DNA of 64,000 bases from an uncultured Chloroflexia bacterium (lineage in GTDB: Bacteria; Chloroflexota; Dehalococcoidia; DSTF01; JACRBR01), in assembly GCA_963843685.1 (NCBI GenBank), contig CAWJLO010000010.1:390933-454932 (forward strand), in the 5' to 3' direction. Each line of letters begins with the position of its first letter. Position 1 is the first letter of the stretch. The notes under the pieces are model-generated. The model was not told the origin of the DNA, ran no database searches, and saw nothing but the letters and a program-made list of their open reading frames with translations. Both the position numbers and the translations under genes were made by a program. Below, piece by piece: positions 1 through 64,000 of the stretch.

Positions 1-917
1 TCACCGCCATCGTCTCCATCGCCGATGACGGAGGTTCGTCCGGCAGGCTCAAGCGCGAGCTGGGGGTGCTACCGCCGGGGGACATCCGCAAGAACATCGC
101 CGCGCTCGCCGATGCCGAACCTTTGATGTCGCAGCTGTTCGAGTATCGCTTCAACGAAGGCGAGGGGCTGGAGGGTCACAGCTTCGGCAACCTGTTCATC
201 GTGGCGATGACGGAGGTCGCCGGCAACTTCGAGGAGGCCGTGCGCGAAACAAGCCGCGTGCTGGCGGTGCGCGGGCAGATCCTGCCAGCGACGCTCTCGC
301 ACCTGACGATCTGCGCGAAGACGGACGACGGGCGCGTCGTGCGGGGCGAATCGGCGATTACCGAGACGGGGCACGTGAAGGAGATCTACCTCGACCCGGC
401 AAACATCCTGGCGAACCCGGACGCGGTGCGGGCCATCCTGCAGGCGGACCTCATTGTCTGCGGACCGGGGAGCCTCCTGACGAGCGTATTGCCGAACCTG
501 CTCGTGGACAAGATCCGCCGGGCGATCGACGCGTCGCCGGCGCTCAAGGTCTACGTCTGCAACGTGGCGACCCAGCACGGAGAGACGGACTCGTTCAGCG
601 TGAGCGACCACTACAAGCTGCTGGAGCAGCACCTCGGGAGCAGCCCGTTCGACTTCGTCCTGGCGAACAGCGATACGGACGCAGTGCTGCCGGAAGAATG
701 GCACTCCGAACCGGTGCGGGTAGACAGCCTCGCCATCGACGGGGCGCGCGTGATGAAGGCAGACGTGGTGGCGGTCGAGAACCGGTACCGGCACGACTCG
801 AAGAAGTTGGCGGACGCCCTGATTCGCCTGTATTACGAGCGGCACCAGATCGCCGAGATGGAGCCGCAGCCTACGCACGCACCAGAACGCGAACCCGAGA
901 AGGCCGGCGTCGGCTGA
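1..917 (+). CDS. Gluconeogenesis factor YvcK/UPF0052 (CofD-like) family protein, 5'-partial (begins upstream of window)
   Basis: Frame continues open to position 1. Translation TAIVSIADDGGSSGRLKRELGVLPPGDIRKN carries the family motif (ADDGGSSGRL...PPGD). The ORF track 66..917 is the same frame. Confidence 0.8.
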   Translation, partial: TAIVSIADDGGSSGRLKRELGVLPPGDIRKNIAALADAEPLMSQLFEYRFNEGEGLEGHSFGNLFIVAMTEVAGNFEEAVRETSRVLAVRGQILPATLSHLTICAKTDDGRVVRGESAITETGHVKEIYLDPANILANPDAVRAILQADLIVCGPGSLLTSVLPNLLVDKIRRAIDASPALKVYVCNVATQHGETDSFSVSDHYKLLEQHLGSSPFDFVLANSDTDAVLPEEWHSEPVRVDSLAIDGARVMKADVVAVENRYRHDSKKLADALIRLYYERHQIAEMEPQPTHAPEREPEKAGVG

Positions 918-961
918 CCACCTGCCGCCGGGCTACGTGCGGCGCCACGCCCCCTGAGCCC

Positions 962-1645
962 CTAGCTAACCGCCGTGTGCTCTCTTGAAGCGAGCGCGTG
1001 GAGCCCCTGCACCGCGACGTCGATGAGCTGCTGGGGCAGCTTCCATTCGCCGGGCGACCACCGGGGAAAACTCCGCAGCACGTCGAAATCTACGGTGTAC
1101 GAGTTGCGACGACCCTGCCTGAGTCGCACGATGATTCCGTCGTCCTCGAGCTGATTCAAGATGGCGACGACCGCACGCTCGGTCACCCCGACGGACGTGG
1201 CGATCTCGCGCACGGTCGCCTGGCTGTCCATGACGATAGCCAGCAGCAGGAGCGCGTGGTTCGTGAAGAACCCCCACGTGCCGATTCGGGGGTCGAGCGC
1301 GCCCGAGTCGGGAGCGGGCGTCGGGGCGTTCGCCGTACCGTTCTGGTCGGAGATCGTGAGGAGCGTCCGGATCAAACCATCGACGAACGAACGCGGAGTG
1401 AGCGAGACGGTGCCCTCGCGGCGATACACGGCGAGGCGATCGAAGTACACAGAGTAGGTGGTGCGGCGGCCTTCCTTCTGACGATGGATGATCTGCTCGT
1501 CGTGAAGCTGGCGCAGGATGGCGAGCGTGGCCCGCTCGGTGACGCCGACGCCCGCTGATATCTCGCGCACCGTCGCGCCGTTGTGGCGCACGACGTAGAT
1601 CATCACCAAGGCGTGGTTGGTCAGGAATCCCCAGGACTGCTTCAT
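962..1645 (-). CDS. Transcriptional regulator with two tandem-duplicated winged-HTH modules
   Basis: 227 aa. Internal duplication: FLTNHALVMIYVVRHNGATVREISAGVGVTERATLAILRQL... and FFTNHALLLLAIVMDSQATVREIATSVGVTERAVVAILNQL.... Each module is a wHTH-like segment. ATG at 1645. Confidence 0.6.
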   Translation of the reverse strand: MKQSWGFLTNHALVMIYVVRHNGATVREISAGVGVTERATLAILRQLHDEQIIHRQKEGRRTTYSVYFDRLAVYRREGTVSLTPRSFVDGLIRTLLTISDQNGTANAPTPAPDSGALDPRIGTWGFFTNHALLLLAIVMDSQATVREIATSVGVTERAVVAILNQLEDDGIIVRLRQGRRNSYTVDFDVLRSFPRWSPGEWKLPQQLIDVAVQGLHALASREHTAVS

Positions 1646-62596: not shown

Positions 62597-62634
62597 AACG
62601 CCAGCGTAACACGGTGCTGGCCCACGGTCGGAGC

Positions 62635-64000
62635 CTACGGCGTGGCTACGGGCGTGCCTGTGATCTGCTCCAACTGGTCGAGGATCTGCTTCAGGTTCGC
62701 AATCTCCGCGCCGTACCCCGCGAAGTCGCCGTCGCGCAGCAGGGTCTGGGCGCGATCGTACGACTGCTGCGCCTGCGCGACGAGCGATGCGACATCACCG
62801 CCCGCGATCGGCGTCAGCGGCGGTGTGGCTGTCGGCGCCGGAGACGCGGCGGCGCTCGGCGTGGTCCCGGCGACGGGCGTCCCCGTAGGCGTGGTGATCG
62901 TCGCGCCGGTGCTGTCCAATCCGGAGGGCTGCGCCCGGCCGAACGCCACGTCGATGGCGCGTGACAGGGTCGGCTCCATCGCGATCGTGTCGCCGTTCAC
63001 GACGACGACGCGCTTAAGCTGCGGGATCGTGTTGCCGCCGCCACTGGCGGCGAGGTAGAGCGGCTCGAAGAACATATTGGCGTTTCCGATCGGGATCATC
63101 AGCAGGTTGCCCCTGATCACCTGCGACCCCGATTGGTTCCACAGCGTGAGCTGCTGCGACACACGGCCGTCAGAGTCGATACGGCGCTCCACCTGCGTTG
63201 GTCCGGGGACGCTCTCCGTCGATGGGAAGCGGAAGGCGACGAGCTCGCCATAGTTCGCGCCGTCCGACCGGGCCGCCAGCCAGGCGATCGCGTTCGTCCG
63301 GTTCAGCGGCACAAACGGCAGGATGAGCATGAACTCTTCCTTCTGCTCGCCGGGGAGGCGCGCCACGACGTAGTACGGCCGCACCTGCTGGTCGGAAGAG
63401 CCGAAGGTCTCGGTCGGGATGTCCCACTGGTCCTCCTGCTGGTAGAACTGGCGGGCGTCCGTGATGTGGTAGCGGAGGTACGCCTGTGTCTGCAGGCGGA
63501 ACATGTCCTCCGGGTAGCGGATGTGCGCACGAAGACCGTCCGGCATCTGGTCGATGGGCGTGAAGAGATTCGGGAAGACGGCGGAGTACGCCTTGAGGAT
63601 CGGCTCATCCGGTTCGGCCGCGTAGAACGTGGTCTCGCCCGAGTAGGCGTTTACGACGACCTTGACGCTGTTCCTGATGTAGTTCACACCGCCGGTCCGG
63701 TGCGAGTACGGGATGCGGTCGGTCGTCGTGTAGGCATCCTGCATCCAGTACACGTTGCCCTGGTCGACAACCATGTACGGATCGGCGTCGAGTTGCAGGA
63801 ACGGCGCGATGTCGTGGATCCGCTGCTGGATGTTCCTGTCGTAGATGATGCGGCTGTTGTCCGTGATCGCGCCGGACAGGAGGATGTTCCTGTCCTTGAA
63901 CTTCCACGCGTACAGAACGCGGCGGAAGAAGCTGCCAACTCCGACCCCGCCCGACCCCTCGAACTTCGTCTGGACGTTCGTGCCACCACTGGCAGGCGTA
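62635..64000 (-). CDS. UPF0182 family membrane protein, 5'-partial (N-terminus lies beyond window end)
   Basis: The track ORF 62635..63774 starts at an internal Met. The same frame stays open upstream to 64000 (...FKDRNILLSGAITDNSRIIYDRNIQQRIHDIAPFLQLDADPYMVVDQGNVYWMQDAY...). The C-terminus is a PT-rich tail. Confidence 0.7.
   Translation of the reverse strand, partial: TPASGGTNVQTKFEGSGGVGVGSFFRRVLYAWKFKDRNILLSGAITDNSRIIYDRNIQQRIHDIAPFLQLDADPYMVVDQGNVYWMQDAYTTTDRIPYSHRTGGVNYIRNSVKVVVNAYSGETTFYAAEPDEPILKAYSAVFPNLFTPIDQMPDGLRAHIRYPEDMFRLQTQAYLRYHITDARQFYQQEDQWDIPTETFGSSDQQVRPYYVVARLPGEQKEEFMLILPFVPLNRTNAIAWLAARSDGANYGELVAFRFPSTESVPGPTQVERRIDSDGRVSQQLTLWNQSGSQVIRGNLLMIPIGNANMFFEPLYLAASGGGNTIPQLKRVVVVNGDTIAMEPTLSRAIDVAFGRAQPSGLDSTGATITTPTGTPVAGTTPSAAASPAPTATPPLTPIAGGDVASLVAQAQQSYDRAQTLLRDGDFAGYGAEIANLKQILDQLEQITGTPVATP

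Follow-up and report, generated by a model that had tools for sequence, protein, structure and literature searches.

Why should seven genes within 64 kb of a single bacterial contig each be interrupted by a frameshift? The stretch of DNA analyzed here (64,000 nucleotides, referred to as the window) stems from a Tepidiforma-like Dehalococcoidia and lies on a contig of 969,108 bp. Seven of the ∼61 genes in the window are split (∼11% in 64 kb), which corresponds to a frameshift density of ∼1 event per 9 kb. The original prediction held that these genes carry +1 frameshifts, and that systematic consensus insertion errors were a better explanation than real decay. All seven sites are indeed present, each at or within ∼10 nt of the position first given, and the positions could be refined, e.g. 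to 42079–42081 for the nitronate monooxygenase-family gene, which had been placed at ∼42088. The affected genes, numbered as sites 1–7, are listed below with the extra base in brackets where it can be assigned, together with one further difference in a spacer.

8355 to 11874, plus strand: site 1, mfd (transcription-repair coupling factor), 1172 aa after removal of one base at 11660–11664, in the region GCT GG[G] CGG GCG
16710 to 17682, minus strand: site 2, DUF7065/DUF7064 protein, 323 aa after removal of 17290, coding strand GTG CA[G]C GTC, not a homopolymer insertion
22208 to 24233, minus strand: site 3, TMEM260-like (PF11028, formerly DUF2723) glycosyltransferase, 674 aa after removal of 23970, coding strand TTT CT[G] CCC TGT
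28543 to 31558, minus strand: site 4, PA14-domain pilin-like protein, 1004 aa after removal of one base at 30146–30150, coding strand CGG CTT G TGG
38812 to 39562, minus strand: site 5, ABC transporter ATPase, 249 aa after removal of one C of CCC at 39404–39406, coding strand CAG CC[C] GGG TGA
41357 to 42482, minus strand: site 6, nitronate monooxygenase-family protein (NMO), 374 aa after removal of one C at 42079–42081, coding strand CAC C[C]G AAT C
60214 to 61162, minus strand: site 7, DHDPS/DapA-family lyase, 315 aa after removal of one C at 61090–61091, coding strand GAC CAC [C]GG CAT
55125, no strand: extra T in an intergenic spacer relative to a metagenome-assembled genome (MAG) of the same species, CGCCG[T]CTGCC

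Deleting exactly one base at each site is sufficient to obtain the full-length proteins listed above, and no gene needs a base added, as anticipated. The two halves of each gene also proved to be parts of the same protein. Three-frame translation showed that the protein carries on in the next frame at all seven sites, and in six of the repaired genes a Pfam domain crosses the junction (DUF7065, TMEM260-like, PA14, ABC_tran, NMO, and DHDPS). The exception is mfd, where the TRCF domain stops at the junction of the repaired protein and the final 68 aa are encoded in the next frame. When the 1171-aa Mfd ortholog of a sister species (P0065, contig L093) is aligned with the window, its residues 1–1104 match frame 3 and its residues 1104–1171 frame 1. 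The public Mfd product (P0064) is 1192 aa long and ends with a 90-codon out-of-frame tail; both P0064 and a second wrong-frame product, P0267, stand in the public record. In the PA14 pilin-like gene, the break falls within the second PA14 repeat, and a 690-aa PA14 fragment originating from the window is present in public protein collections. A gene encoding a 1092-aa FtsX permease lies downstream of the ABC ATPase gene. The first four sites are spaced by roughly 6 kb, a pattern that is not upheld by the other three.

The direction of the shift is +1 at every site: compared with the same-species MAG or with a sister species, the window always has one base more. Were +1 and −1 events equally likely, seven of seven in one direction would have a two-sided p of 0.016. 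No further frameshift emerged when the entire window was segmented by codon usage with a Viterbi algorithm, nor from Pfam scans of its other ORFs, and a tblastn search with 48 orthologous proteins from relatives found two-frame breaks in none but the listed genes. By the same three approaches, no nonsense codon, −1 event, or larger deletion was found among the ∼61 genes. Several candidates for additional lesions were considered and rejected. The positions where the Viterbi segmentation switches frame without switching strand (e.g. 12387, 12900, 20528, 20907, 25342, and 50121) are ordinary gene boundaries, at which stop and start codons overlap and the orthologs are intact. A 119-aa protein with only the N-terminal domain of a prepilin peptidase might have been an eighth broken gene, but relatives carry the same 119-aa ORF. 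Similarly, the region 50596–54957, which could be read as one gene with in-frame stops, consists of four same-frame genes; their families are unrelated, and a full-length ortholog exists for every one of them.

The comparison with orthologous loci that had been proposed as a check was possible at all seven sites, and the extra bases are absent from the same-species MAG and/or sister species. The same-species control, GCA_964418935.1, is an independent fragmented MAG of a different strain, ∼1.3% divergent from the window. It aligns over 32,963 window positions with 96.5–99.0% nucleotide identity (98.6–99.0% on four of the five contigs), and the genes are intact at all five sites that it covers. 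At site 2, contig L175 is uninterrupted (...FKKVNVDLVHE...), 17290 being the sole coding gap. At site 3, the glycosyltransferase is intact in L177 (TTT CTC CCT GTC) and in the sister-species contig L087 (674 aa). Contig L176 covers both the ABC ATPase (CAG CCG GGT GAG, 249 aa, the length also found in sister-species contig L085) and NMO (CAC CGA ATC, 374 aa, with CAT CCC ATC and again 374 aa in sister-species contigs L085 and L086). At site 7, L094 reads CAC GGC ATC (315 aa), and sister-species contig L084 reads CAC CGC ATT (312 aa). The five 1-base window insertions are the sole coding indels between the window and this MAG, and there are no coding deletions. The extra T at 55125, seen in the same alignment, may belong with the seven insertions as an eighth.

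For sites 1 and 4, the controls come from sister species only. Sister-species contigs (84–87% nucleotide identity) have intact genes at sites 1 and 3–7, and ∼40 neighboring orthologs align in a single frame. The PA14 orthologs of sister species (943 aa, L087, L089, and L090) read ...CTC TGG GTC... without the extra base, as does the first PA14 repeat of the window gene itself. Other searches were less informative. A search with the C terminus of Mfd gave no same-species match, and the repaired NMO matched only relatives with ≤73% identity among metagenome contigs, too distant to compare single bases. When the seven junction peptides were joined into one chimeric query, multi-repeat PA14 proteins dominated the matches, and the window's own 690-aa fragment was all that was gained. 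An ACAD protein search of genome contigs identified Dehalococcoidia/Tepidiforma relatives with up to 90% aa identity, in which synteny with the window is confined to a three-gene cassette. Given that these genes are unbroken in a second assembly of the species, the frameshifts are almost certainly consensus errors.

Could these nevertheless be genuine, very recent, strain-specific pseudogenes, produced by seven independent +1 insertions, e.g. in a mutator lineage or one under relaxed selection? The frameshifts do stand in the deposited sequence, private mutations are formally possible since the comparison MAG represents another strain, and each affected gene, mfd included, is probably dispensable on its own. 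The pN/pS ratio between window and MAG is 0.090 downstream of the frameshifts (43 synonymous and 11 nonsynonymous differences), as in intact genes (0.084 for 25 genes), showing that the downstream halves are still under purifying selection and that constraint is not relaxed. Past the break, the restored frame behaves as functional coding sequence by both pN/pS and Pfam, and neighboring genes are under strong purifying selection. Neither relaxed constraint nor other types of lesions were found, even though ∼11% of the genes are hit in 64 kb. Furthermore, spontaneous bacterial indels are biased towards deletions, whereas all seven events here are insertions, and null mutations give no reason for the clustering of the sites in strain-variable codons described below. 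Decaying bacterial genomes, such as those of Mycobacterium leprae and recent host-restricted symbionts, carry pseudogenes that resemble the window genes in being recognizable genes cut by frameshifts. Unlike these genomes, the window keeps its codon bias and contains no IS elements, deletions, or nonsense codons, its downstream parts are under purifying selection, and intact copies exist in the same species. We therefore regard pseudogenization as very improbable. These findings favor consensus errors over decay, in line with the original prediction.

Alternatively, programmed +1 ribosomal frameshifting or another form of recoding, as in prfB, might restore the proteins. The same +1 shift would be needed at all seven sites, and a 0-frame TGA occurs within 2–3 codons past the ABC ATPase and DHDPS-like sites. 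At the five other sites, the 0-frame stays open for 90–243 codons, and these stretches contain neither a stop nor an evident pause signal. Same-species and sister-species orthologs do not share the shift, being encoded in one frame, and the seven gene families are unrelated. No motif is common to the seven contexts, and no common slippery/stop context was found. The unshifted orthologs effectively refute recoding, which we consider to have next to no chance of being correct.

The seven frameshifts are thus very probably one-base consensus insertion errors in a long, probably long-read, metagenome contig rather than mutations of the organism; the length of the contig (969,108 bp) suggests long reads. 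Long-read consensus indels are a frequent source of frameshift errors in gene calling (PMC9262707). The window resembles the indel-affected Nanopore or PacBio assemblies and MAGs that IDEEL-type protein-length tests pick up: its split genes form pairs of neighboring ORFs that differ in frame, complete orthologs exist elsewhere, the contig is very long, and there is ∼1 event per 9 kb. It differs from them in that its events lie outside long homopolymers, are all insertions, and in two cases are not homopolymeric relative to the same-species allele.

This raises the question of what kind of consensus error is involved. Homopolymer indels are the best-known consensus error in long reads (PMC9262707), and classic homopolymer-length miscalls by a single-molecule or flow-based platform, with no role for strains, would be one form of artefact. 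Relative to the same-species allele, sites 5 and 6 (both CC to CCC) and site 7 (C to CC) extend C runs, and run extension could also account for sites 1 and 4. At sites 2 and 3, however, a G is inserted between A/T and C, which does not lengthen any run of the same-species allele. Runs reach 3 bases at most, both at the seven sites themselves and within ±6 nt of them. None of the 70 window runs of ≥5 bases, nor of the 361 runs of ≥4, has a frameshift. Length-dependent errors would yield over-calls as well as under-calls, and the window has insertions only. The expected concentration in long runs and the two directions are thus both missing, which makes this form of artefact rather unlikely. 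There is likewise no long simple-sequence repeat or homopolymer tract at the sites, as would be expected of phase-variable contingency loci. Judging from these contexts, the original reading is refined in that the errors are apparently not classic long-homopolymer miscalls.

The sites have another property in common. Four of the five checked sites are in or adjoin codons for which the MAG and sister species have different amino acids (N/K, P/S, R/P, and G/R), against a background of 5–14% differing codons in those proteins. The chance of such a coincidence is ∼3e-4 to 2e-2, depending on the positional ambiguity allowed. At site 6, window CCGA can be read as the bases of the MAG (CGA) and of sister species (CCx) placed one after the other, and the same is true at site 7, where window CGGC combines GGC and CGC. 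Site 2 would follow this pattern (window CAGC, MAG AAC), if the K of the sister protein is assumed to be encoded by AAG. Relatives showed a single allele at sites 3 and 5, and sites 1 and 4 are ambiguous for a tandem reading.

The coincidence with strain-variable codons, and the alternative bases lying side by side, suggest that the consensus was mixed from co-assembled strains. The sample would have contained two or more co-occurring strains of the species and, where these differ, consensus building or polishing would have retained both alternatives in tandem rather than picking one. Retaining both bases can only add, never remove, which would explain the single direction of all events. Locally acting polishers are known to give haplotype mixtures in heterozygous regions, and in one illustrated case a polisher adds a second frameshift (Hapo-G paper, PMC8092372). 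The window is similar in that its frameshifts mostly occur where two alleles differ and, at up to three sites, would read as a blend of both. It is different in that the "haplotypes" would be co-occurring metagenome strains, not those of a diploid genome, and in that the second allele is found in relatives at only three of the five sites, including site 2 by the above assumption. Strain mixing is not uniquely required, because six of the seven sites also fit a plain +1 extension of a 1–2-base run. Given that the sites are artefacts, we consider strain mixing, as judged from these codon comparisons, somewhat better than an even bet; the remaining probability within this class would go to ordinary, polymorphism-independent insertion errors at modest coverage.

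A different view of the variable codons is that the extra bases are real. In that case, uncompensated +1 insertions would be numerous at hypervariable codons in a natural population of this Tepidiforma-like bacterium. Adjacent double substitutions would arise there from pairs of a frameshift and a second, compensating one, with the insertions representing the intermediate stage, as NMO might exemplify (CCG ATC to CCG AAT C to CGA ATC). Low-level +1 recoding, or the lineage being a mutator, might make the insertions tolerable. We consider this very unlikely.

If the seven frameshifts are consensus errors, as we believe, their biological importance is small and the consequences are practical. 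About one in nine genes on the source contig would be mis-annotated, and wrong-frame products such as the 1192-aa Mfd and the 690-aa PA14 fragment have already entered public protein collections. Pseudogene counts, metabolic reconstruction, and completeness estimates derived from this MAG would be distorted. Insertion-only errors at strain-variable codons, rather than in homopolymers, would be a useful diagnostic if this is true genome-wide, because they would indicate strain mixing and hence haplotype-aware polishing, not homopolymer correction, as the remedy.

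Three-frame translation confirmed that a recognisable protein carries on in the next frame at each of the seven predicted breaks, and deletion of a single base yielded uninterrupted products at all seven sites. Six of the predicted positions were accurate to within a few bases; the break in NMO lies at 42079-42081, not at ~42088. Both halves belong to the same family, as had been claimed: one Pfam match spans the junction in six of the repaired proteins. In Mfd, the junction marks the end of the TRCF domain, and the other frame encodes the conserved C-terminal tail beyond it.

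Frameshifted genes: product length after deletion of one base; intact sister-species ortholog (JGI metagenome contigs); change on the coding strand from the same-species metagenome-assembled genome (MAG) to the window; residue differing between same-species MAG and sister species.
Site 1: Mfd, 1172 aa; L093, 1171 aa; inserted base ambiguous among several positions
Site 2: DUF7065/DUF7064 protein, 323 aa; AAC to CAGC, G inserted between A and C; N versus K
Site 3: TMEM260-like glycosyltransferase (PF11028, the former DUF2723), 674 aa; L087, 674 aa; CTC CCT to CTGCCCT, G inserted between T and C
Site 4: PA14 protein, 1004 aa; L087, 943 aa; inserted base ambiguous among several positions
Site 5: ABC ATPase, 249 aa; L085, 249 aa; CCG to CCCG, C inserted, run CC to CCC; P versus S
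Site 6: NMO (42079-42081), 374 aa; L085 and L086, 374 aa; CAC CGA to CAC CCGA, C inserted, run CC to CCC; R versus P
Site 7: DHDPS-like lyase, 315 aa; L084, 312 aa; CAC GGC to CAC CGGC, C inserted, run C to CC; G versus R

The window (~61 genes, G+C 64-72% over 64 kb) contains exactly seven frameshifts, all +1 as predicted, because three further checks added none. In a codon-usage Viterbi segmentation of six frames, the seven sites are the only same-strand frame changes other than ordinary gene boundaries. Pfam scans found no further broken ORFs, all others being full-length. When 48 proteins from relatives' syntenic contigs were searched against the window by tblastn, the matches to Mfd, NMO, ABC ATPase and glycosyltransferase were each broken into a pair of HSPs in different frames, the first 22 residues of the DHDPS-like lyase were missing from its match, and PA14 gave several HSPs in a single frame owing to its repeats; ~40 others matched end to end in one frame. 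None of these checks detected a -1 event or an in-frame stop in the window genes. SBP_bac_5, TetR, KshA-like and amidohydrolase genes run consecutively in one reading frame at 50596-54957 (-) as back-to-back stop-to-stop ORFs; a single gene with in-frame stops was ruled out, each of the four having a separate full-length ortholog.

The window's products belong, by exact protein match, to one 969,108-bp contig in NCBI and ENA. With its acyl-CoA dehydrogenase as query, the nearest genomes are Dehalococcoidia MAGs and Tepidiforma species (80-90% aa identity). Two groups of contigs were reached through cluster members of neighbouring proteins. Those of the sister species are syntenic with the window at 84-87% nucleotide identity and carry intact genes at sites 1 and 3-7. 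The DUF7065/DUF7064 homologs are in a single frame in the 120 listed, most of 322-330 aa. Five contigs of the independently assembled same-species MAG (GCA_964418935.1) align to 32,963 positions of the window with 96.5-99.0% identity; they span sites 2, 3, 5, 6 and 7, with the gene intact at all five. Over these 33 kb, coding sequence is gapped at just five places, each a one-base insertion in the window that coincides exactly with a predicted site. All other gaps lie in spacers: an extra T in the window at 55125, upstream of a BVMO gene, which may add an eighth event to the seven genic insertions; 3 additional nt in the window at 53217-53229, upstream of a TetR gene; and a highly divergent stretch at 18862-18972.

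Because the comparison MAG represents a different strain, its intact genes are compatible with genuine strain-specific pseudogenes in the window. Selection does not fit this. Comparison of 25 intact genes in the window with their same-species MAG counterparts gives a pS of 0.041, a pN of 0.0034 and a pN/pS of 0.084, which shows strong purifying selection. Downstream of the break, in restored frame, the five frameshifted genes covered by this MAG have a pN/pS of 0.090 (43 synonymous, 11 nonsynonymous differences), and thus the out-of-frame halves still resemble working genes. Together with the lack of nonsense codons, deletions and -1 events in the window, this does not fit accumulated real null mutations, and we consider pseudogenes improbable. 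The same data match error in this one assembly; last-moment mutations are much less likely. Programmed +1 frameshifting, for which we see hardly any chance, is refuted by the unshifted orthologs. The site contexts have nothing in common, and the 0-frame stays open for a further 90-243 codons at five sites, a nearby 0-frame TGA occurring only at the ABC ATPase and DHDPS-like sites. Phase variation was excluded because the sites lack repeat tracts. The intact same-species genes, constrained downstream halves and one-directional events thus support the original prediction of consensus insertion errors, and the seven frameshifts are very probably an assembly artefact.

Two refinements apply. First, the errors are not driven by homopolymers. 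At sites 2 and 3, where G lies between A or T and C, no homopolymer is extended; affected runs are all ≤3 bases, and across the whole window none of 70 runs of ≥5 bases and none of 361 runs of ≥4 bases is frameshifted. The usual error of long reads, classic homopolymer miscalling that depends on run length (PMC9262707), describes these events poorly.

Second, the errors are probably tied to strain mixing. Same-species data exist for five sites, and four of these are in or abut a codon that specifies different amino acids in the sister species and in the same-species MAG, in proteins where only 5-14% of codons differ; the chance of at least four coincidences is ~3e-4 for exact codons, and of the order of 1e-3 to 2e-2 with neighbouring codons allowed. 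In NMO, the window's CCGA places the CGA of the same-species MAG beside the sister-species CCx, and in the DHDPS-like gene CGGC likewise joins GGC to CGC. The CAGC of DUF7065/DUF7064 would similarly combine xAC with AAG, the latter codon deduced from the K in sister proteins. A mixed-strain consensus is expected to err preferentially at variable codons, whereas nothing would steer real null mutations, or read errors blind to polymorphism, towards them. A consensus drawn from co-occurring strains could retain both alternatives of a variant, which only lengthens the sequence and would explain the one-way bias. Haplotype mixtures in heterozygous regions have been reported for locally acting polishers, including an illustrated case of a second frameshift introduced by the polisher (PMC8092372). 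The same-species MAG is itself broken into 2-22-kb contigs, which may reflect strain heterogeneity in that population too. Given an artefact, we rate strain mixing at slightly better than even. The remainder falls to ordinary insertion error at modest coverage. Simple +1 run extension is possible at six of the seven sites, and the second allele that mixing requires is not seen at sites 3 and 5 in the relatives compared.

The PA14 protein (28543-31558, -) has a prepilin-like N terminus (GFGLVELV...) and two near-identical PA14 domains separated by Thr/Pro-rich linkers, which differ in length between species (1004 aa in the window versus 943 aa in the sister species). It resembles an adhesin of the pilus tip or a minor-pilin adhesin, and its gene lies in a type IV pilus operon (PilB, PilC, PilV, PilM and PilT). 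A 119-aa ORF at 25320-25679 (-) has only the prepilin-peptidase N-terminal zinc-ribbon domain (PF06750), without the A24 catalytic domain, and is flanked on one side by a PilT-like gene and on the other by a hypothetical gene just downstream of a PilM-like gene. It recurs, at the same length, at 11070-11429 of L087 (sister species) and 1109-1468 of L177 (same-species MAG); it is therefore a natural stand-alone protein, and another broken gene was ruled out.

Other loci in the window and in the sister species are as follows.
15209-16649 (-) and 19499-20912 (+): two divergent phosphotransferase (APH family) + DUF6285 pairs flanking the DUF7065/DUF7064 gene, the second followed by an acyl-CoA dehydrogenase gene; the APH + DUF6285 + ACAD cassette is kept in many Actinomycetota and Chloroflexota contigs, with non-conserved flanks
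42493-53208: steroid-side-chain-like catabolic cluster, Tepidiforma-like Dehalococcoidia, with a P450 (JGI name cholest-4-en-3-one 26-monooxygenase), acyl-CoA dehydrogenase, enoyl-CoA hydratase, acyl-CoA synthetase, two thiolase-like proteins, two ChsH2-like OB-fold proteins, amidohydrolase, KshA-like Rieske oxygenase and TetR regulator
L085 6007-10598 (compare window 40087-40330): sister-species 5-kb insertion between luciferase-like monooxygenase and response regulator, with genes for a sensor kinase of 1315 aa and a response regulator of the GerE type; missing in the window and the same-species MAG (L176)

The source annotation read the frameshifted mfd and PA14 genes straight through, and both products are in public protein collections.
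8355-11933: P0064, Mfd of 1192 aa ending in an out-of-frame tail of 90 codons
29528-31600: P0267, 690-aa PA14 fragment
The biological interest of the seven frameshifts is low; they matter for annotation, because a wrong-frame Mfd and a PA14 fragment are already public.
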